Source: Nanobdellota archaeon (lineage in GTDB: Archaea > Nanobdellota > Nanobdellia > Parvarchaeales > Parvarchaeaceae). Taken from it: a DNA stretch of 64,000 nt. The DNA is taken from the NCBI GenBank assembly GCA_021802105.1, contig JAKAAW010000002.1, forward strand, positions 993 through 64,992. Direction: 5' to 3'. Within the stretch, counting starts at the first letter, position 1. Each line of letters starts with the position of its first letter. Positions 2,426-62,217 of the stretch are shown piece by piece. The translations under genes were made by a program, and so were the position numbers. Below the pieces are notes generated by a model. It was not told the origin of the DNA. It ran no database searches and worked only from the letters and a program-made list of their open reading frames with translations.

Positions 2426-2532
2426 CTTTACGCCTAGTATATATTTTAGCTTTAGAACCTTGTCAATGTGAGCGGAAAACCACCTCTTTAGAGAAGATAT
2501 ATATCACAATATCCCACCCCTATGCCTTCAAT
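2426..2532 (+). repeat. Copy A of a conserved three-copy intergenic element (core 2463-2509); candidate small ncRNA or MITE-like relic
   Basis: The core TCAATGTGAGCGGAAAACCACCTCTTTAGAGAAGATATATATCACAA is collinear with the copies at 10361-10407 (+) and 44238-44288 (-). The flanks also align with copy B (CTTTAcGCC.. / ..TGCCTTcAAT). Confidence 0.6.
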
Positions 2533-5244: not shown

Positions 5245-6435
5245 ATGGTCAAGGATATAGTAATAGATATAATAGGGAGCTTTGCGGATGGAAAAACGAC
5301 TCTCGTCAGAGCCCTTACAAGTGAGTCTACCCTTAGGCATAGCGAAGAGAAAAAAAGAGGCATCACTATAAGACTTGGGTACGCGCACTTCCTCCTTTAC
5401 AAATGTAAGAAGTGTTCCTCCTCCAGCAGACATGAGAAGTGCGAGATTTGCGGCGGAGATTCGGAACTGTTCTACAGGGTCTCGATAATAGACTCTCCCG
5501 GGCACAAGACGCTGATGACGATAATGCTTAGCGGTGCACCACTCACTAGCGGTGCGGTACTTGTTATAGCAGCGAATCAAACCTGCCCACAGCCGCAGAC
5601 CGAAGAACATCTGGAAGCCATAAAGATAATAGGTGTGAAGAACTTAGTTGTCGCGCAGACAAAGGTAGATATTGTCGGTGCTGAGAGAGCCAGGCAGAGC
5701 AAGGCAGAGATAGAGGAGTTCCTTGCTAAAAATGGCTTCAAGGACATAAAGGTAATCCCAGTCCTGTCGGTTCATGACATTAACATAACAGAGCTTATAC
5801 AGGAGATAGGCAAATTTGCTTCGTTGGAATACGACAGCAAAAATCCTAAGATGCTAGCTGTAAGAAGCTTCGACGTAAACAAGCCTGGCACGGAAATAAA
5901 CGATCTGAGTGGAGGTGTTTTAGGAGGCGGACTTAAAGCGGGAGAATTGTCACTGGGAGACGACATTCTGATTTACCCAGGTATATTCGTGAACAACGTA
6001 TGGAAACCTATAAAAACAGAAATAAAGGAAATCCAGAGCGAATTCGGAAAGGAAAAGAAAGCAGTACCTGGCCTGATGGTGGGCGTAAAAACGAATATAG
6101 ACCCTTCTCTAGCAAGGAGAGATAGTCTTGCAGGGAGCCTTATAGTATCGACTGAAAATCCTCCAGAGTTCAAGGATAGAATCTCCATAACTTATATCCC
6201 TCTACAGGAGAAAGAGAAAAATGTATTCAAAAAACAGCTTCAGAAAAATGAAGTCGTTCTCTTGAATGTTCTTGCTTCAAAGATATTAGGCACGGTAACA
6301 CTCATACAGAACGATAAGGTAACTATAGCTTTCACCAACGCACTACTGCCTTACTATATAGGAGACAGGGCGATAATCTCGAGAAAAGTTGACAACGTAT
6401 GGGTGCTTGCCGGTTCTGGAACCGTGTATGCTTAG
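5245..6435 (+). CDS. eif2g: Translation initiation factor aIF2 gamma subunit
   Basis: P-loop GSFADGKTTL, RGITIRLGY, zinc knuckle CKKC...CEICG, DSPGH and QTKVD (NKxD-like), followed by EF-Tu-like domains II and III. Confidence 0.9.
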   Translation: MVKDIVIDIIGSFADGKTTLVRALTSESTLRHSEEKKRGITIRLGYAHFLLYKCKKCSSSSRHEKCEICGGDSELFYRVSIIDSPGHKTLMTIMLSGAPLTSGAVLVIAANQTCPQPQTEEHLEAIKIIGVKNLVVAQTKVDIVGAERARQSKAEIEEFLAKNGFKDIKVIPVLSVHDINITELIQEIGKFASLEYDSKNPKMLAVRSFDVNKPGTEINDLSGGVLGGGLKAGELSLGDDILIYPGIFVNNVWKPIKTEIKEIQSEFGKEKKAVPGLMVGVKTNIDPSLARRDSLAGSLIVSTENPPEFKDRISITYIPLQEKEKNVFKKQLQKNEVVLLNVLASKILGTVTLIQNDKVTIAFTNALLPYYIGDRAIISRKVDNVWVLAGSGTVYA

Positions 6436-10320: not shown

Positions 10321-10420
10321 CTTTAAGGCATTACTATACCAATACTTATCTATAATTTTATCAACGTGAGCGGAAAATCAATCTCTTTAGATGTGGATGA
10401 TATCACATGTACAAGTACCT
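10321..10420 (+). repeat. Copy B of the three-copy intergenic element (core 10361-10407)
   Basis: TCAACGTGAGCGGAAAATCAATCTCTTTAGATGTGGATGATATCACA. The ends are inverted-complementary: TTAAGGCA at 10323-10330 and TGCCTT(T)AA at 10411-10419 (one extra T on the right arm). Confidence 0.6.
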
Positions 10421-21013: not shown

Positions 21014-21264
21014 AATTACGTATACATATGGTGTTCTTTGCAATTGATAAAGTACCAGCGCTTCCGCAGCTTATGGACTGATGACGCAGTGCAGCAATGT
21101 TCTAGTGCATATCATCTCAGAGTGTTCGGCGTTCAGATCCAGACTTTATTGCTAAAAAACACAGCTTTGATTATTATGATATTATAACATAAGTATTGTT
21201 ATTCAATTTTTATCCCTTTTTTCCACTCACAAACTTTAAATATTATAACCACTTATAACTTGTT

Positions 21265-21699
21265 ATGGCGACTACAATACAGATAAGCGACGAGGTTAAG
21301 GAAAAGTTAGAAGGACTGAAAATCCACAAAAGACAACCGTTTAATGAAGTTCTTTTAGAGTTAATAAGGGACAAAGAGGCTGGTAAAAACACAGAAGAAA
21401 GGCAAAAGCAGGTGGTAAACAGCCTTGAAGAGATTAAAAAATTAGCCGCTCCTATATTAAGGAACCACAGGATAAAGAAAGCCGCCGTATTCGGGTCATT
21501 TGCAAGGGGCGATTTTGATGATAAAAGTGATGTAGATATATTAATAGAGCGGCCGGATAAATTCTCTTTATTTGATTTAGCTGGCCTACATCTTGACTTA
21601 GAAGGAGCATTGGGTAGGAAGGTGGATATAGTTATATACAATAGTGTAAATCCTCTGATAAAAGGTAGGGTAATGAAAGAAAAAAAGGACATAATATGA
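21265..21699 (+). CDS. mntA: RHH-fused minimal nucleotidyltransferase (MntA-type antitoxin)
   Basis: N-terminal TIQISDEVKEKLEGLK (RHH/antitoxin-like), then VFGSFARGDFDDKSDVDILI (GSx10DxD). Confidence 0.8.
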   Translation: MATTIQISDEVKEKLEGLKIHKRQPFNEVLLELIRDKEAGKNTEERQKQVVNSLEEIKKLAAPILRNHRIKKAAVFGSFARGDFDDKSDVDILIERPDKFSLFDLAGLHLDLEGALGRKVDIVIYNSVNPLIKGRVMKEKKDII

Positions 21700-22037
21700 G
21701 AGAAGGGCAGGATAAGGTGCTATTAACTGATATTTTATCAGCAATCGAGTGGATTAAAAATCACACGAAAGGAATCAACGAAGAAGAATTTAAGAAAAAT
21801 GATGTTTTGGTGTATGCGGTAATAAAGAATATGGAAATAATTGGTGAAGCGTCATCGAGTCTTTCGGAGTATACTATAAATAAAAATCAACAAATTGAAT
21901 GGCAGAAGATAAAGGACATGAGAAATGTACTTGTGCATGCCTATTCTAAGATTAATTTAGAAACACTTTGGGATACCATAATAAATGATCTGCCTAGATT
22001 AAAAGATCAGATAAGACATATCAAGAAAAATGAATAA
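21696..22037 (+). CDS. hepT: HEPN (DUF86) toxin HepT
   Basis: MRNVLVHAYSKINLETLW contains the Rx4H HEPN motif. An ATGA start/stop overlap links it to the upstream MNT gene. Confidence 0.8.
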   Translation: MREGQDKVLLTDILSAIEWIKNHTKGINEEEFKKNDVLVYAVIKNMEIIGEASSSLSEYTINKNQQIEWQKIKDMRNVLVHAYSKINLETLWDTIINDLPRLKDQIRHIKKNE

Positions 22038-25423: not shown

Positions 25424-25930
25424 ATGGCACAGATGAAAAGCTATATCCCGAACGACATAGATAAAAAGCTAAGGATCCAAGCGATGGTAAGATTCGGTTA
25501 CGGCAGGGGATCCATAAGTAAGGCTGTGGAAGAGGCGTTAATGCAGTGGTTAAAGAAGGAGGCAGTAATAAATGATGTGATACAGAGGATAATTGAACAC
25601 GGGAAGGAGGATAAAAACATAACTGCGATAATACTATTTGGAAGCTATGCAAGAAAGGAGCCTGGCTTCAATGACGTTGACGTGGGTTTTTTGGTGAAAA
25701 TCAGCGAAGAATTCGATATATTAAAATACATCAATCTGCTTGAGGGCGAAGCTGCAAATCTTTTTCAGATGACGGTCATAAACAGTTTCCCAGAATGGAC
25801 ACAGGTACATATAATCGACGAGGGAGTGCTCCTGCAGGTGAATGACAGGAGCGAATTATATGGCTATACTTCCAAGCTTATACGCAATTTTTCTGACAAC
25901 GCACATATAGCGGCGCTGCTTAGAAGCTGA
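25424..25930 (+). CDS. mntA: RHH-fused minimal nucleotidyltransferase (second MntA-type antitoxin)
   Basis: N-terminal SYIPNDIDKKLRIQAMVRFGYGRGSISKAVEEALMQWL (CopG/RHH-like), then LFGSYARKEPGFNDVDVGFL. Confidence 0.75.
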   Translation: MAQMKSYIPNDIDKKLRIQAMVRFGYGRGSISKAVEEALMQWLKKEAVINDVIQRIIEHGKEDKNITAIILFGSYARKEPGFNDVDVGFLVKISEEFDILKYINLLEGEAANLFQMTVINSFPEWTQVHIIDEGVLLQVNDRSELYGYTSKLIRNFSDNAHIAALLRS

Positions 25931-25932
25931 TT

Positions 25933-26364
25933 ATGGAATACGATATGCGTGACAGGATAATCGATAAACTAAATGAGATAGATGTACATTTAAACCGGAT
26001 AAAAAGTATACGTGTAAATAGTTTTGAAGATTACAAAAACGCGGACCCGAATATAAAGTATTCAACGGAGAGGAACCTGCAGCTGATAAGCGACGCAGAG
26101 CTGGACGTAGTTGTCCTAATGTACAAAAAATTCGGCAGGGACGTAGCAGGGGGCCTGCCATCGATGATAAAATCGTTAAAATCCGTGTTGAGCAGTAGCC
26201 TGCTTGGATATTTTGATAAACGGAGGGAACTTAGGAACAGATTGGTGCATGTATATAAGGAATTTTCATTCGATAAGGAAGTCTTTGAATCCAGCAGGGA
26301 CACAGCAGATATTGAAGCGTTTGTGCAGGAAATTAAAAAAATAATAGACAGGGATTGGACTTAA
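25933..26364 (+). CDS. hepT: HEPN (DUF86) toxin (second HepT)
   Basis: RRELRNRLVHVYKEF contains Rx4H. The gene starts 2 nt after the MNT stop. Confidence 0.75.
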   Translation: MEYDMRDRIIDKLNEIDVHLNRIKSIRVNSFEDYKNADPNIKYSTERNLQLISDAELDVVVLMYKKFGRDVAGGLPSMIKSLKSVLSSSLLGYFDKRRELRNRLVHVYKEFSFDKEVFESSRDTADIEAFVQEIKKIIDRDWT

Positions 26365-31407: not shown

Positions 31408-33288
31408 TTAACTTGCAGTCACAACAGTTTCTGCATGTGCACCGATTTTTCCAAATAGATTTATACTATAAGAATCTCCTGAAATAAGCACGGCAAAAGG
31501 AGATGGTATCTTTACACCATTGTCACTTTGTACCTGCTGGGACGGTCCTAAATTCAATAAGCCACTGAGGGTAAACGTAATCGAATCTCCAGGCATAAGG
31601 GTATAACCTTTAGGTATCTGGTCCGGGTTTATCGTGACATTCGTATTGGTCGCGCCGTTGGCAATTGTATTCAATGCCGCGCCGTTCGCACTCGTCGAAT
31701 TAGAAACTACCTTTGTGCTCATCGCGTACATTGGTGGGAATCCAAGCGTACCGTTCGGGAATATCATGCGACCTATAGGGAACTTAGCTGCTCGTAAAGT
31801 TATCTGCAGCGGTGGAGTTACAGTCGGTGGTGCCATGCCGGCCGGGAATTGTATATAGAGCGTCGTTCCAACAGGAAGCGTTACCGCCGTGGCTCCAGAT
31901 GGTATAGTGACATTCAGGGCAGGCCCTTGCTGAGAACCATTTTGCTGGATAGTGTGTGTAAATTGCGGCATTGTAGTAGTTTTATAAACTATATCACCGC
32001 TGACATTGACAAGTGCTCCCGTTGAGTTTAATGATATTGCATGCGCTGGTGTGACTATTTTCAAGAAATAGAAAGTTCCATTTAATGTAATATTCAGAGA
32101 TACTGTACTATTTGTGCTGTTAATATAACCTGTACTATTTGACGTTTTTGTATTTGTACTGTTAATAGCACTTTTGTTAATATAACTTGTGCTAATAGAG
32201 GGTGTTATATTTGTACTGTTAATAGCACTTTTGTTAATATAACCTGTACTATTTGACGTTTTTGTATTTGTACTGTTAATCGGAGGTCGAGTCGGTATAG
32301 AAGGCAACGTAAACGTTGATGTTGTGTTCATTATCGTGCCATTGGGGAATGTTATCACCATCTTTGGAGGAGGTATAAAACCAGATGGGGTTAGCACGCC
32401 CGCTGGTGGAGTTATAGGGAGTTGCATGATCATGGATGGAAGACGGAAGAGCTCACTCATTGGAGGTTGTGGGAAATACACTTTTTTGAGCCCATTTATC
32501 ATTATACCGTTCAGCTGCACGCTATCATTCCCAGTGTTCTTTACGGTTACACTAAGATTGGTATAGTTACCGTCGATGGATATTGACGCAGAAGTAACAT
32601 TTATGGTAGGCGTTACATTGTTGAACAATTTACCTAAGCTTACATTGGAAGAAAAGTTCACCTTAGAACCTACTGGAGGAAGAGACTGTATTATTCCATG
32701 CTGCACACTAGAGGATCTGCTTAAAAATATGTTTGGTGGAGTTATGACAGCTCTCACATTAGCAGTCAAAACGTACACAGTCTTATCTACCGTTTCTATG
32801 GCTGTGACTGAAGGAATTAAGTCGACAAGCGCGTTTTTCTGCCCAGATATTGAATTGTTGGACGTTACATTTATCGTCAGTGTCCTTTCGCCTATCACGA
32901 CAGTATAGTTTTCGCCGCCTATCGTTATAATAGCATTGGATATATTAATTTTTATCTGCGTGACTTTAGAACCATTAAGAACGTTTGTTGATGCTAACAC
33001 TATCGATGAATTTTGCAGGCTTAGCACGTTTACGGTACCACTTCCTGGAAGTGTCTGCGTGCTTACGCCGCCACTATGCGAAATCTGGAGTTGCAGAGCA
33101 GAATATGTCACGAACAGCGCCGTGGTCCCTTGTGGCACTGTTGCAGGATCAGTAAGACTAAGGAAGAAATTTTTCTGTAAAGGAACTGAACTGGTCGTTG
33201 GGAACAAATTGTTAAAGATCATATACCCTGCGACAATAGCTATTACCGCCACAACGGTGACCATCATTAAGTAGGTTTTCGCACCCAT
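31408..33288 (-). CDS. Large secreted or membrane-anchored, heavily sequon-rich surface (S-layer-like) glycoprotein
   Basis: N-terminal anchor MGAKTYLMMVTVVAVIAIVAGYMIF. Dozens of N-x-S/T sequons and Thr/Ser/Asn/Pro-rich repeats. Confidence 0.6.
   Translation of the reverse strand: MGAKTYLMMVTVVAVIAIVAGYMIFNNLFPTTSSVPLQKNFFLSLTDPATVPQGTTALFVTYSALQLQISHSGGVSTQTLPGSGTVNVLSLQNSSIVLASTNVLNGSKVTQIKINISNAIITIGGENYTVVIGERTLTINVTSNNSISGQKNALVDLIPSVTAIETVDKTVYVLTANVRAVITPPNIFLSRSSSVQHGIIQSLPPVGSKVNFSSNVSLGKLFNNVTPTINVTSASISIDGNYTNLSVTVKNTGNDSVQLNGIMINGLKKVYFPQPPMSELFRLPSMIMQLPITPPAGVLTPSGFIPPPKMVITFPNGTIMNTTSTFTLPSIPTRPPINSTNTKTSNSTGYINKSAINSTNITPSISTSYINKSAINSTNTKTSNSTGYINSTNSTVSLNITLNGTFYFLKIVTPAHAISLNSTGALVNVSGDIVYKTTTMPQFTHTIQQNGSQQGPALNVTIPSGATAVTLPVGTTLYIQFPAGMAPPTVTPPLQITLRAAKFPIGRMIFPNGTLGFPPMYAMSTKVVSNSTSANGAALNTIANGATNTNVTINPDQIPKGYTLMPGDSITFTLSGLLNLGPSQQVQSDNGVKIPSPFAVLISGDSYSINLFGKIGAHAETVVTAS
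32100..32285. repeat. Tandem repeat of 57 nt (19 aa), about 3 copies, inside the surface-protein gene
   Basis: GTTAATATAACCTGTACTATTTGACGTTTTTGTATTTGTACTGTTAAT occurs exactly at 32119-32166 and 32233-32280, with a diverged copy between. The protein reads INSTNTKTSNSTGYINKSA / INSTNITPSISTSYINKSA / INSTNTKTSNSTGYIN. Confidence 0.85.
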
Positions 33289-34012: not shown

Positions 34013-34075
34013 ACTATTAGTATCAATGGGTAATTTAAACCGTTAATATTGATATTCCTGTCTTAAAATTTCTTT

Positions 34076-34515
34076 TTAGTTATACCGGTTTATTATTTTA
34101 TCTATAGCCTTATCAAAGTCTTTGGTAGTGTACGTGCGTTTGCCAGTTGATGACAATAACTTTTTGATTTTGTCATTGTCGTAATTATATCTGCAGATCC
34201 GCTCCTAATGCACTTCAGAATAGTCATTAGATAATTGTTTCTCAAGTTCCTGCTCCAACTCCTCACTTAAATTGTTATGATGCGGATACCCGGACAGTTT
34301 GTGCGTTAGTTCATGAAGACATTTTTATCCACTTCTAAAAGAGTCCTGTTCAAAAGCTCTGTATCAACACATTCATCGAATTTTTCTCTCGCGTTGATTC
34401 TTCTGCCGCTCTCAACGAATCTGAGCAGTTCTACGCTTTCATCCCATGATTTAAACCGTGGGTTTTCCCGCTCACACTTTATAAATACTTTGTCAGCAGA
34501 CCACGCTGATTGCAA
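34076..34515 (-). pseudogene. Disrupted HExxH metallopeptidase-like gene (frameshift at an A-run plus an in-frame TAG)
   Basis: The 69-aa ORF (34306-34515) ends ..LLEVDKNVFMN*. The adjacent frame continues (K)CLHELTHKLSGYPHHNNLSEELEQ...SEVH*, then a further 42 codons to the TAA at 34076-34078. Confidence 0.4.
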
Positions 34516-34540
34516 TAAGTTCTGCTAACTCAAACAGTAG

Positions 34541-35017: not shown

Positions 35018-35295
35018 TGACTAACTCTGTGACATACTCCCACAACGAATTCGATGGGCTTCTTTTCGCACGACCGCCTCTGAAGAGACCTTTCAGCCTG
35101 CCGTAAATCGGCGATAGATCAAATCGCGAGAACTGCCTTTAAATGCACTCTCTACCAAAGAGTTTCCCGTCAAAGTTTTTGCTCTTTCCACACTTATATA
35201 TCTTTATTTTTGCTTTCATCTCAAGATTAAAATCGTTGACTTTCGCGCGCACATCCTAAAGAAATTGTAATATCTAACCACTCGCAATCTATTCT

Positions 35296-42696: not shown

Positions 42697-44217
42697 TTAT
42701 CTGTTTCTTCTGTTCTTCCCCTTCTTATACTCTGGTATAGTAAACCTGTTCCAGAAGAGCTTGTGCAGCCGGAGCTTATCTGGTATCTTATTCAGGTATG
42801 GTATAAACGGAAATAGTATCAGCAGCACAAAGAAACCCAACGCTATCATGCCTCCATCGAAATCTGCGTTTGGATCATTACTGAGTATCGTTATATCTAG
42901 CAGATTGTATGGGGCGACCCACCAGCTGCCGGGCGGCCACAGTCCCGGGTTGTTTTTTATCATACCGAATTGCTGAAGCTGCAGTCCATCCTTAGTCGCA
43001 ATTGTATTCATTGTCCCAGTGTCTGAAAGGAATCTTAGGATGTATGTCTGGTCAAAACCGCTTGTTTCCTGGTAGCTTAGACTGCTCTGGTACAGACCGC
43101 TCTTAGCCATCAGGACCAGAGAGCTTATCACAGCTATCAGAGGATTGCTTGGATTGACAGAGGCATTTATTGTACCATTATCTCTAAAATAGGCATAAGC
43201 GCTGTTTATGTTTGTAGACTGCTCTGATATATTCTCGGAGTTGAAGAGGGCTTCCGCGTCCGTGCTGCCCGAAATGTTGATGTACTGATTATAAGGTATG
43301 GTCACATAAACGGTGCGTGTGTTAAAGGTGTAGGGATCTATAGTGTCTAGATACGTGGCTGTGCCGGATGTGTGGTTGAATTCCTGCAAGAGAGTCATAG
43401 CTACTATGTTTGGAGAAGATTGTGCGACACTCTGTATTGTGACAGGTGCCACATAAGGTGCCCTGAAGAAAAGCGCGAAAAGAATTATTATGGCAGTCAG
43501 AACGAGCGCCCTTTGATATAACTTCTTGTGGCTTGCTTCTACCATAGAGTAAGGGATATCGTTTCGATAAGGAGTAGATATTCCTCTCCTCTTGACTAGC
43601 GAGAAGTGCACAGCTATAAGTATCATAAGTATAAGCGGTATTATAGCTATATGCCACCCATATAACGCCCCCCAATTCAGAGGGTTTACCCAATAGCCGA
43701 GTCCGATGCCGTTCCAGAGATCAGCCGCCGATAAATCGTTCCATTGAGATACAAAATCACCTCTTATACCCAGGCCGAAAGCTTCCTCCAAAAGCACCAA
43801 AAATAGGAGGATAGAGCCTACCATCCAGACTAGCTTTCTCTTTAAGAAAGCTGACGTGGAAAACGTGACGAAGACATGCAAAATGAGAATGGTTCCAAAC
43901 GCAAACGCCGCCCACATGTGTATGCTCCTTACAAAAGTCCCCCATGTTGTCGTGTTCCACCAGAACGGACCAAAAATAACCATTATTATCCCAGATAGGG
44001 CGAGTATTACAAAAGTTACAAGAAGAAGAAATCCAAGAGAATAGAACACGCTGTTCCCATATGATGGTACTTTCCTTATGTAAACGGATTGCACGAGTCC
44101 TTTTATCTCACCGAGCAACGACGGGTCCTCTTCTTTTCTTTTTCTTGCGCGACTTGGCATATAGCTATCTAATAAAGGATTATCTAAGAATTTAAGGGTT
44201 TTAGCCGCCGTTTTCAT
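42697..44217 (-). CDS. Cytochrome b-family membrane protein fused to a large C-terminal extracytoplasmic domain
   Basis: FVRSIHMWAAFAFGTILILHVF and YGWHIAIIPLILMILIAVHF give two His pairs with cytochrome b spacing. The C-terminal roughly 250 aa are Ser/Asn/Thr-rich and end in a final TM helix. Confidence 0.6.
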   Translation of the reverse strand: MKTAAKTLKFLDNPLLDSYMPSRARKRKEEDPSLLGEIKGLVQSVYIRKVPSYGNSVFYSLGFLLLVTFVILALSGIIMVIFGPFWWNTTTWGTFVRSIHMWAAFAFGTILILHVFVTFSTSAFLKRKLVWMVGSILLFLVLLEEAFGLGIRGDFVSQWNDLSAADLWNGIGLGYWVNPLNWGALYGWHIAIIPLILMILIAVHFSLVKRRGISTPYRNDIPYSMVEASHKKLYQRALVLTAIIILFALFFRAPYVAPVTIQSVAQSSPNIVAMTLLQEFNHTSGTATYLDTIDPYTFNTRTVYVTIPYNQYINISGSTDAEALFNSENISEQSTNINSAYAYFRDNGTINASVNPSNPLIAVISSLVLMAKSGLYQSSLSYQETSGFDQTYILRFLSDTGTMNTIATKDGLQLQQFGMIKNNPGLWPPGSWWVAPYNLLDITILSNDPNADFDGGMIALGFFVLLILFPFIPYLNKIPDKLRLHKLFWNRFTIPEYKKGKNRRNR

Positions 44218-44237: not shown

Positions 44238-44288
44238 TTGTGACATCCTCCTACCTCTAAAGAGATGGGTTTTCCCTGATTAGGTCGA
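44238..44288 (-). repeat. Copy C (core only) of the three-copy intergenic element
   Basis: The reverse complement reads TCGACCTAATCAGGGAAAACCCATCTCTTTAGAGGTAGGAGGATGTCACAA. It ends about 20 nt upstream of the ATG (44217) of the cytochrome b-like gene. Confidence 0.55.
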
Positions 44289-61405: not shown

Positions 61406-61924
61406 ATGTTAAAAAGAATTTTTAGTTTGGCAGATAAAGTATTCGGGGGGAAAGTTGTCTATGCGCACTGTGATATCCCATGCGGGATATATGACCCTCA
61501 CACTGCACAGCTGTCAGCCCATACAGTGATAAGGATGGATGCTCTGATAGAGAAGATGCCGAAGATAGGGCCCTCTCCCAGCAACGATGAATTCAGAAAA
61601 TACATACATGATCTTACGAGATACACTGATGTGAAGGAGGAACACGCGGAGAAGATAAAGAGTGAAGTAAGGATACTTTGGGGTGATTACTTCAAAGACG
61701 ACCATGCCAAACAGTTCCCCGAACTCGAAGGGCTCGTTCTTCAAGCACTTAGACTTGGTTCAAAGGTAAAACAGGAAGTCGATCCAAAATCTGCGCAGGA
61801 ACTCCTCGAGACCATTAACAAGATAGCCGAGATATTCTGGAAGACTAAGGGAATAGAGACAAAGAGGGTAAAGGTCACGTTCTGGCCCACCGATTCAGAT
61901 CTCGTTATTCCAATACTTAACTGA
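61406..61924 (+). CDS. sodN: Nickel-containing superoxide dismutase precursor (SodN)
   Basis: A 20-aa leader is followed by HCDIPCGIYDP (the Ni-hook HCDLPCGVYDP). ILWGDYFKDDHAKQFPELEGLV and IAEIFWKTK match Streptomyces SodN blocks. GAGGTG lies upstream of the ATG. Confidence 0.9.
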   Translation: MLKRIFSLADKVFGGKVVYAHCDIPCGIYDPHTAQLSAHTVIRMDALIEKMPKIGPSPSNDEFRKYIHDLTRYTDVKEEHAEKIKSEVRILWGDYFKDDHAKQFPELEGLVLQALRLGSKVKQEVDPKSAQELLETINKIAEIFWKTKGIETKRVKVTFWPTDSDLVIPILN

Positions 61925-62217
61925 TGGTTTTTTTCCTGAAGAGATTCAGGGTGTCTGAAGAAAGCATGTTGCCCGGGATAAAGCCCGGTGATTACATCAT
62001 CGTAGACACTCTGCGCTATAAGCTTAGGTCCCCTAAGAATGGTGATATAATAGTCTTCAGGCACGATGGAATGGAGATGGTTAAAAGAATTTCCGCAAAC
62101 GATGGTGGCTCTTATACCGTACTCGGAGACAACCTAAACAAGAGCGTTGACAGCAGGAGATTCGGACCGATAAAAAAAAGGGATGTGGTAGGCAAAGTTA
62201 TCTGGATAGCTAAGTGA
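61924..62217 (+). CDS. sodX: S26-family signal-peptidase-like NiSOD maturation protease (SodX)
   Basis: SMLPGIKPGD (catalytic Ser box), VKRI (Lys box), GDNLNKSVDSRRFGP. A TGATG overlap links it to sodN. Confidence 0.75.
   Translation: MVFFLKRFRVSEESMLPGIKPGDYIIVDTLRYKLRSPKNGDIIVFRHDGMEMVKRISANDGGSYTVLGDNLNKSVDSRRFGPIKKRDVVGKVIWIAK

Follow-up and report, generated by a model that had tools for sequence, protein, structure and literature searches.

Palindrome-associated transposable elements (PATEs) are derived from transposons of the IS200/IS605 family. The transposase TnpA of IS608 cuts 3′ of TTAC, 19 nt 5′ of the left hairpin foot, and 3′ of TCAA, 10 nt 3′ of the right hairpin foot, and its guides are the four bases 5′ of each foot, which pair with the cut sites (AAAG with TTAC; PMC3201880). 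In ISNph18, ISHwa24 and the PATE HqIRS54, the left end reads TTAC, ..GAAAG, palindrome, ATGAA.. and the right end ..GGGAAT, palindrome, AGGATGTCAA (PMC3119063, Table S9). Deletion from one near-terminal palindrome to the other has been described to shrink a transposon of 1500 bp or a PATE of 390 bp to a "terminal-only" element of 52 bp (PMC3119063).

Here we analyzed a 64,000-nt stretch of an archaeal contig (the window), with 9.4 kb of L059 added upstream and 7.9 kb of L063 added downstream. We find a dispersed family of intergenic repeats whose copies are, with high confidence, non-autonomous remnants (PATEs) of IS605-type transposons of the IS1341/tnpB group within the IS200/IS605 family.

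Three core copies and a wider repeat family

The first-pass annotation of the window had reported one element in three copies, A (2463-2509, + strand), B (10361-10407, +) and C (44238-44288, −), situated between tandem, convergent and divergent genes, respectively. Re-reading the window reproduced these coordinates and letters exactly and confirmed the settings of the neighboring genes. Shuffling, blastn and leave-one-out nhmmer tests all agree that the resemblance is far above chance. The pattern GGAAAAN{3,6}CTCTTTAGA has 3 matches in the window, compared to 0.00 expected from 100 dinucleotide-preserving shuffles, and an all-against-all blastn over 81 kb pairs C with B (E = 9e-4) and A with B (E = 0.04). 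Each copy was the best non-training match in its leave-one-out nhmmer search (A, 14.9 bits; C, 23.6 bits; B, 25.6 bits), while the best unrelated match in the same searches reached 5.9–7.8 bits.

Read as terminal-only PATEs, the three copies have slightly shifted boundaries. Copy B spans 10362-10406 (+), with the target TTAT at 10358-10361, the guide AAAA at 10374-10377, the palindrome at 10378-10397 and the right-end TCAC at 10403-10406. Copy C spans 44240-44287 (−), with TTAT at 44291-44288, the guide AAAA, the palindrome at 44269-44250 and the 10-nt tail AGGATGTCAC (last base 44240); a TATA box lies on one side of it and the start codon of a cytochrome b gene on the other. Copy A (2464-2507, +) is the most decayed short copy: it retains the guide AAAA (2476-2479) and the right-end TCAC (2504-2507), has a decayed palindrome (2480-2496) and is preceded by a mutated target, TTGT (2460-2463). 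The contigs of three other assemblies of the same population stop at most ~1.3 kb from copy B, namely at window positions 10349 (L061, right at the target box of B), 9814 (L062) and 11166 (L060); these ends could reflect assembly breaks caused by the repeat, or chance.

The family extends beyond the three copies claimed. Iterating the profiles over the extended sequence yielded nine solid members in ~81 kb, with D, H and F inside the window and E, I (both in L059) and G (L063) just beyond it, and one more member resides in a related metagenome-assembled genome (MAG). The latter, the L012 copy, was found by a pattern scan of species-representative genomes in the MAG "Nanoarchaeota archaeon MAS3.bin115". 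Two forms can be distinguished: form 1 comprises A, B, C, E (L059 6637-6695) and the L012 copy, and form 2 comprises D (34430-34485, −), H (35206-35262, −), G and I. Common to both are TTTAT(C), ~18 nt with GGGAAAA as their last bases and a palindrome whose outer arms are CCCAC/GTGGG, whereas the inner palindrome (CTC-TTTA-GAG in form 1, GATTT-AAATC in form 2) and the tail (AGGATGTCAC in form 1, ATGAAAGCG in form 2) are specific to each form. Long forms can be aligned over their first ~70 nt only, and pairwise identity among copies is 52–83%. A covariance model built from form 2 alone (left-end model R1) recovers form-1 copies, with 32.8 bits for the L012 copy and 21 bits for B.

Copy D (34430-34480, −) has the layout of a left end, TTAT followed by AAAGTGTGAGCGGGAAAA, CCCACGGTTTAAATCATGGG and ATGAAAGCG, with the palindrome at 34462-34443 and a leave-one-out score of 31.1 bits. 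On the same strand, ~115 nt downstream, a piece at 34314-34343 (CTCTTTTAGAAGTGGATAAAAATGTCTTCA; rank 8 of all matches, p about 0.02) is probably, if tentatively, the decayed right end of D, which would give a PATE of ~167 bp. The arrangement of left end plus decayed right end replaced a previous reading of D as a long form with an intron or insert. Copy H (35206-35257, −), composed of GTGCGCGCGAAAG, TCAACGATTTTAATCTTGA and GATGAAAGC, is a decayed left end and scored 18.8 bits (E = 3.5e-4) with a profile of D and G and 12.4 bits in the leave-one-out search. Copy F (35029-35062, −; 7.0 bits, rank 4) has the layout of a right end, with the guide GAAG followed by CCCATCGAATTCGTTGTGGG and the 10-nt tail AGTATGTCAC, and stops 11 nt short of the ATG-side start of a gene for a 158-aa membrane protein, counted to its start codon. 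Together, H and F would make a PATE of ~229 bp. Mutated targets or decayed stems are found in A, H and I.

Two weaker matches are listed tentatively. Copy K at 21208-21245 (−; TTTAAAGTTTGTGAGTGGAAAAAAGGGATAAAAAT; 16.7 bits, E = 0.79) is possibly a family remnant that has lost its hairpin, and a piece at about 615-665 of L059 may be a further member. At least three nucleotidyltransferase (MNT)/HepT-like toxin–antitoxin pairs are present within ~50 kb (window 21243-22037 and 25424-26364; L063 16730-17649); one MNT gene has left end G directly upstream of it, and another adjoins remnant K.

Block order matches the ends of tnpB transposons

A sensitive blastn search against plasmids with the L012 copy as query returned matches on haloarchaeal megaplasmids, and a search with its Halobacterium noricense relative returned 68 records, mostly from Halobacteria. 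In Halobaculum roseum and Halopiger xanaduensis an annotated tnpB is followed by the match at a distance of 15 nt, in Natrinema pellirubrum it is the 5′ portion of the query that matches, upstream of tnpB, and a weak match in Streptomyces finlayi (E = 0.3, 77% identity) runs across the tnpB stop codon. The Halopiger element has the left end TTAT, AGAGATTTCGAGGCGAAAA, CCCACGGCTTTAGCCGTGGG, ATGAAGCC, a near block-for-block parallel to copy D, and the right end GGGAAT, CCCACCCCTTCAGGGGTGGG, AGGAGGTCAA. The layout of D is that of the left end upstream of tnpB in Halopiger, and also that of ISNph18 and HqIRS54. The tnpB neighborhoods and the Halopiger ends thus identify form 2 as a left end and the 3′ half of form 1 as a right end.

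A covariance model built only from the left ends of the window detects a Natronorubrum copy (31.8 bits, E = 7e-5). The solo copy of Halobacterium noricense shows the fusion of two ends directly, since it combines the Natrinema left-end flank (GACACGTAGCGAGCGGAAG) with the right-end tail AGGATGTCAA. Furthermore, the Rfam model sot0042 matches the Halopiger element with 98 bits, and its last stem-loop is the right-end palindrome. This sense-overlapping transcript covers part of haloarchaeal tnpB at its 3′ end and is now recognized as the guide-RNA scaffold of TnpB. The ~81 kb of this genome contained neither tnpA nor tnpB (Pfam on scanned window ORFs; gene tables for the flanks). Given this and the divergence among copies, we regard them as old relics.

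Guide, target and hairpin geometry

Within the window family, the target lies 16–18 nt 5′ of the hairpin foot and the cleavage tetranucleotide ends 10 nt 3′ of it. At this distance B, C, D, E and the L012 copy have TTAT and G has TTAC, while A (TTGT) and I (TCAT) are each one mutation off; a former idea of TTAC anywhere upstream was replaced by this target at a fixed distance. The right tail measures 10 nt in C and L012 (AGGATGTCAC) and in F (AGTATGTCAC), 9 nt in B and 11 nt in A, and is decayed in E.

Target and guide change together. The guide AAAA accompanies TTAT in B, C, D, E, L012, the Natronorubrum bangense copy and the Halopiger element, and AAAG accompanies TTAC in G, ISNph18, HqIRS54, ISHwa24 and IS608. 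At right ends, GAAG is combined with TCAC in F and GAAT with TCAA in five other elements; GAAT/TCAA is also the right-end pair of IS608. Under the simplest base-by-base pairing scheme, which was derived from the observed pairs and not from crystal structures, GAAG/TCAC of F would be a second matched change.

This geometry accounts for the blocks that the first-pass annotation had listed as invariant: the guide lies within GGAAAA, CTCTTTAGA forms the palindrome tip, and TCAC(A) is the right-end cut site with the first flanking base. The supposed archaeal TATA box in front of the copies is better read as the TTAT insertion target, which is external to the element and covaries with the guide. The CTC-TTTA-GAG center, proposed to form a short hairpin, is the tip of a longer imperfect palindrome (CCCAC...GTGGG). 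At its fixed position, hairpin potential exceeds the genomic background (p = 1.6e-4; folding energy against random 22-mers) and is equal on both strands. Pairing in the left-end helix amounts to 84%, with a single compensatory pair; in A and H the stem has decayed.

Alignment of the copies with their flanks, along with inspection by eye, revealed no terminal inverted repeats and no target-site duplication. The suggestion of a "MITE-like relic" was correct in pointing to a non-autonomous transposon remnant, but as both of these features are absent, the type is a PATE and not a MITE.

Proposed origin of the copies

The left end of a full element of this family comprises the target tetranucleotide, ~18 nt with a 4-nt guide as their last bases, an imperfect palindrome and ATGAA..., and the right end comprises a 4-nt guide, a similar palindrome and a 10-nt tail that closes with the cleavage tetranucleotide. 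Both palindromes are bound as single-stranded DNA hairpins by the Y1 transposase TnpA, which locates the cut sites by base pairing with the guides and releases a single-stranded circle; this circle is re-inserted 3′ of a target without duplication. D, G, H and I represent left ends, and F represents a right end. The short copies (A, B, C, E and L012) are terminal-only elements of 44–48 nt, made up of the left-end flank, one palindrome and the right-end tail, the DNA that separated the two similar palindromes having presumably been deleted. Homology, geometry, the covariation of guide and target and the reconstructed insertion site are shown by the analysis, and the deletion route is inferred from them.

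The copies would now be immobile fossils without a function of their own. They occur in any intergenic context, in both orientations and in graded states of decay, and, with their 52–83% identity, this fits decaying repeats. By our own estimate from the pairwise identities, the conservation of blocks among copies does not exceed the expectation for neutral decay. In the fused short copies, the lone guide AAAA fits the left TTAT and mismatches the right-end TCAC, so that the published rule does not account for cleavage at the right end. Fused copies are therefore probably no longer cleavable at that end, which agrees with fossils but would be at odds with the rule had they ever moved in this form.

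Host and related lineages

The first-pass annotation had placed the host near Thermoplasmata, which was wrong: the host is an ultra-small DPANN archaeon of the Parvarchaeales/Micrarchaeota-like type. Uncultured-archaeon MAGs encode proteins identical to the cytochrome b adjacent to copy C, and the nearest relatives beyond these (~60% identity) bear the annotations Parvarchaeum, Micrarchaeota or Marsarchaeota. The window has a G+C content of 41%.

Assemblies of 99.9%-identical strains all carry the copies without presence/absence polymorphism; this similarity is too high to reveal constraint or mobility. No copy was present in ~140 kb read from related Parvarchaeales/Micrarchaeota-like (DPANN) contigs, nor at the orthologous cytochrome b and M20-peptidase loci of the relatives. 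Exact-pattern scans of species-representative genomes, JGI metagenomes and viral contigs gave only chance matches apart from L012, using a pattern too strict for the haloarchaeal relatives.

The L012 contig and the window both have a G+C content of 41.0%, and their tetranucleotide correlation (0.92) nearly equals that of window pieces among themselves; no gene is common to the window and the 8 kb of L012. L012 probably represents a sister lineage in which this repeat family was likewise inherited. On this contig, a tRNA-Pro with the unusual anticodon AGG (6059-6132, −; ARAGORN; Rfam tRNA 55.9 bits) lies 20 nt from the repeat copy in convergent orientation.

A nickel superoxide dismutase gene (PF09055) is directly followed by an S24/S26-type peptidase gene (window 61406-62217, +); such a peptidase is the usual maturation protease of nickel superoxide dismutase, and the pair is bacterial-style although the host is a DPANN archaeon. 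A 626-aa ORF (DUF4382-like) contains a perfect 49-nt direct repeat (32118-32166 and 32232-32280, 114 nt apart), which probably reflects an internal protein repeat. In a large hypothetical gene ~6.3–6.8 kb past the window end (L063 18866-19383) there are two direct-repeat pairs, one of 54 nt at 93% identity and one of 92 nt at 85%, ~260 nt apart. A related contig (L080 1535-4030, GCA_014874295.1) carries a SufB gene with a faint intein-splicing match and a LAGLIDADG homing-endonuclease domain.

Copy C and the cytochrome b promoter

Genes in the window are mostly leaderless, with a TATA-like hexamer starting 27–31 nt before the ATG. In silico excision of copy C, from behind TTAT to behind TCAC, joins ...AAATTTTAT to AAGAGTTACTATTCATCCCATAATG and creates a seamless TTTATA at −27 of the cytochrome b ATG at 44217. 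The restoration of this box at the normal leaderless distance supports the predicted element boundaries and shows that insertion took place downstream of the cytochrome b TATA box and upstream of the gene start. More generally, insertion after TTAT places elements in or beside archaeal TATA boxes. The simplest inference is that cytochrome b is now transcribed with a leader of ~50 nt, predicted to include the hairpin and a GGAGG Shine-Dalgarno-like run.

The cytochrome b-like protein (42697-44217, −) has ~19 extra N-terminal residues compared to its homologs, and translation may instead start at Met20, which has a weak TTAAAT box at −35. The outcome of the excision favors the upstream ATG over Met20 as the original leaderless start.

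Copies C and F raise the question of whether some relics have been put to use, either by rewiring the expression of respiratory or membrane genes or in that the 45-nt fused forms might still be mobilized in trans. The position of C in front of cytochrome b and that of F close to the membrane-protein gene are the cases for the first half of this idea. We consider such co-option unlikely overall, and prefer to see the copies as fossils of PATEs.

Alternative readings of the repeat

Much less probable is that the copies are independently transcribed small RNA genes, an option also offered initially; each would have its own TATA box and a hairpin RNA of ~30–60 nt. Most copies are preceded by a TTTATC box resembling the local TATA consensus, their hairpin potential is above background, and some reside in convergent regions, where neither an mRNA leader nor a terminator fits. 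However, the A/T box is accounted for by the TTAT target and its covariation with the guide, and a transcript beginning at the usual 27–31 nt from a TATA box would start within the palindrome and exclude its 5′ arm. Pairing is also without strand bias. Comparison of the window copies with Rfam gave no match at gathering or relaxed thresholds, single-sequence folds of both strands were not better than shuffles (z 0.05 to 1.8), and the copies have no terminator in common. Of the 174-nt sot0042 scaffold, only the last stem-loop is present, and no window copy matches the full ~174-nt scaffold at E up to 5–10. C/D-box and H/ACA RNAs were rejected as well, with neither a C/D nor an ACA-with-pocket layout apparent by inspection and no hit in Rfam; K-turn, hammerhead, frameshift-signal, integron attC, replication-origin box and Phr/NrpR operator were dropped after a check by eye.

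A protein-binding site had been a further suggestion. In its most explicit version, each copy would be a promoter-plus-operator cassette, a TATA box followed by a palindromic repressor site, defining a regulon of cytochrome b, membrane proteins, NUDIX and others. The palindrome would indeed straddle the predicted transcription start, and 6 of ~9 copies are oriented toward a downstream gene. Yet the three genes downstream of A (471 aa), E (NUDIX) and G (nucleotidyltransferase) have each retained a TATA box of their own at the normal distance of about −30, and several copies are without a target gene, with B, I and L012 facing the 3′ end of a gene or a tRNA. Two unrelated inner palindromes cannot suit one DNA-binding protein, and the same blocks flank tnpB in other archaea. 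We therefore give the cassette hardly any credence.

The copies are almost certainly not pseudogene fragments of a small protein. In favor of such a reading, the frame F-I-K-C-E-R-E-N-P... is common to D, E and L012, the third codon position accounts for several of the differences among copies, and a 69-aa ORF over D is annotated by gene callers. However, indels disrupt the frame in B and stop codons do so in C, H and I, A and E have no start codon, and no relative of the ORF turned up in 5.8 billion proteins or in 1.84 billion cluster representatives. This ORF (34306-34515, −; TTG start; publicly called as P0121) spans left end D and its decayed right end and is most likely a spurious call over transposon debris. 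The gap in which it lies (34013-34540, 528 nt) contains two more open stretches in a different frame.

Comparison with known systems

Reading the family as PATEs removes a false lead, as a hairpin-bearing, TATA-preceded motif that resembles a small RNA or a regulon turns out to be transposon debris. It also implies that IS200/IS605 (TnpB-type) elements once spread in a roughly 1-Mb DPANN genome, leaving ~1 relic per 9 kb. As the TTAT target overlaps archaeal TATA boxes, insertions can displace promoters, for example that of cytochrome b. For annotators, the signature to mask is TTAT, 18 nt ending in AAAA, a CCCAC...GTGGG palindrome and then AGGATGTCAC, and masking would prevent spurious ORF calls such as that on copy D.

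The closest counterparts are the terminal-only PATEs of Haloquadratum walsbyi (HqIRS46 "core del" and the 52-bp ISHwa23 derivative; Dyall-Smith et al. 2011, PMC3119063), which like the copies here are ~50 bp long and gene-less. They likewise consist of a left-end flank, one near-terminal palindrome and a right-end tail, have no inverted repeats or target duplication, are scattered between genes and derive from IS605-type elements by deletion between similar palindromes. In contrast, the present host is a DPANN archaeon with 41% G+C and not a haloarchaeon, the target and right end are TTAT/TCAC instead of TCTAC/TTAC and TTCAC/TCAA, and the copies are old (52–83% identity), with no strain-specific insertion seen.

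Block-for-block similarity at both ends extends to ISNph18, ISHwa24, HqIRS54 and unnamed elements on Halopiger xanaduensis pHALXA01 and Halobaculum roseum plasmids. These elements and the window share ..G(C/A)GA(G)..AAA(G/A), a CCCAC-stem-loop-GTGGG and ATGAA(G/A)C on the left, and the palindrome followed by AGGA(T/G)GTCA(A/C) on the right, with distances of 18–19 nt and 10 nt. The elements compared carry tnpB, whereas the window copies are gene-less, and the inner stem sequences differ. IS608 of Helicobacter pylori is alike in its subterminal imperfect palindromes, cut-site distances and 4-nt guides 5′ of the foot, but sequence similarity is undetectable beyond short motifs, and the main pair here is AAAA/TTAT. 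The right-end palindrome equals the terminal stem-loop of Rfam RF02656 (sot0042), of which only ~20 of 174 positions are present here.

MITEs and bacterial REP elements resemble the family as short, gene-less, dispersed intergenic repeats with hairpin potential. MITEs require inverted terminal repeats and usually duplicate their target; here, the only such trace is a weak 5-nt TGTGA...TCACA symmetry in A, which is not kept in C, E or L012, and the flanks are unduplicated. REPs need a GTAG head and RAYT transposases, and RAYT transposases are not known in archaea. In summary, the copies are a known kind of selfish DNA, and what is new for them is their occurrence in a DPANN lineage.
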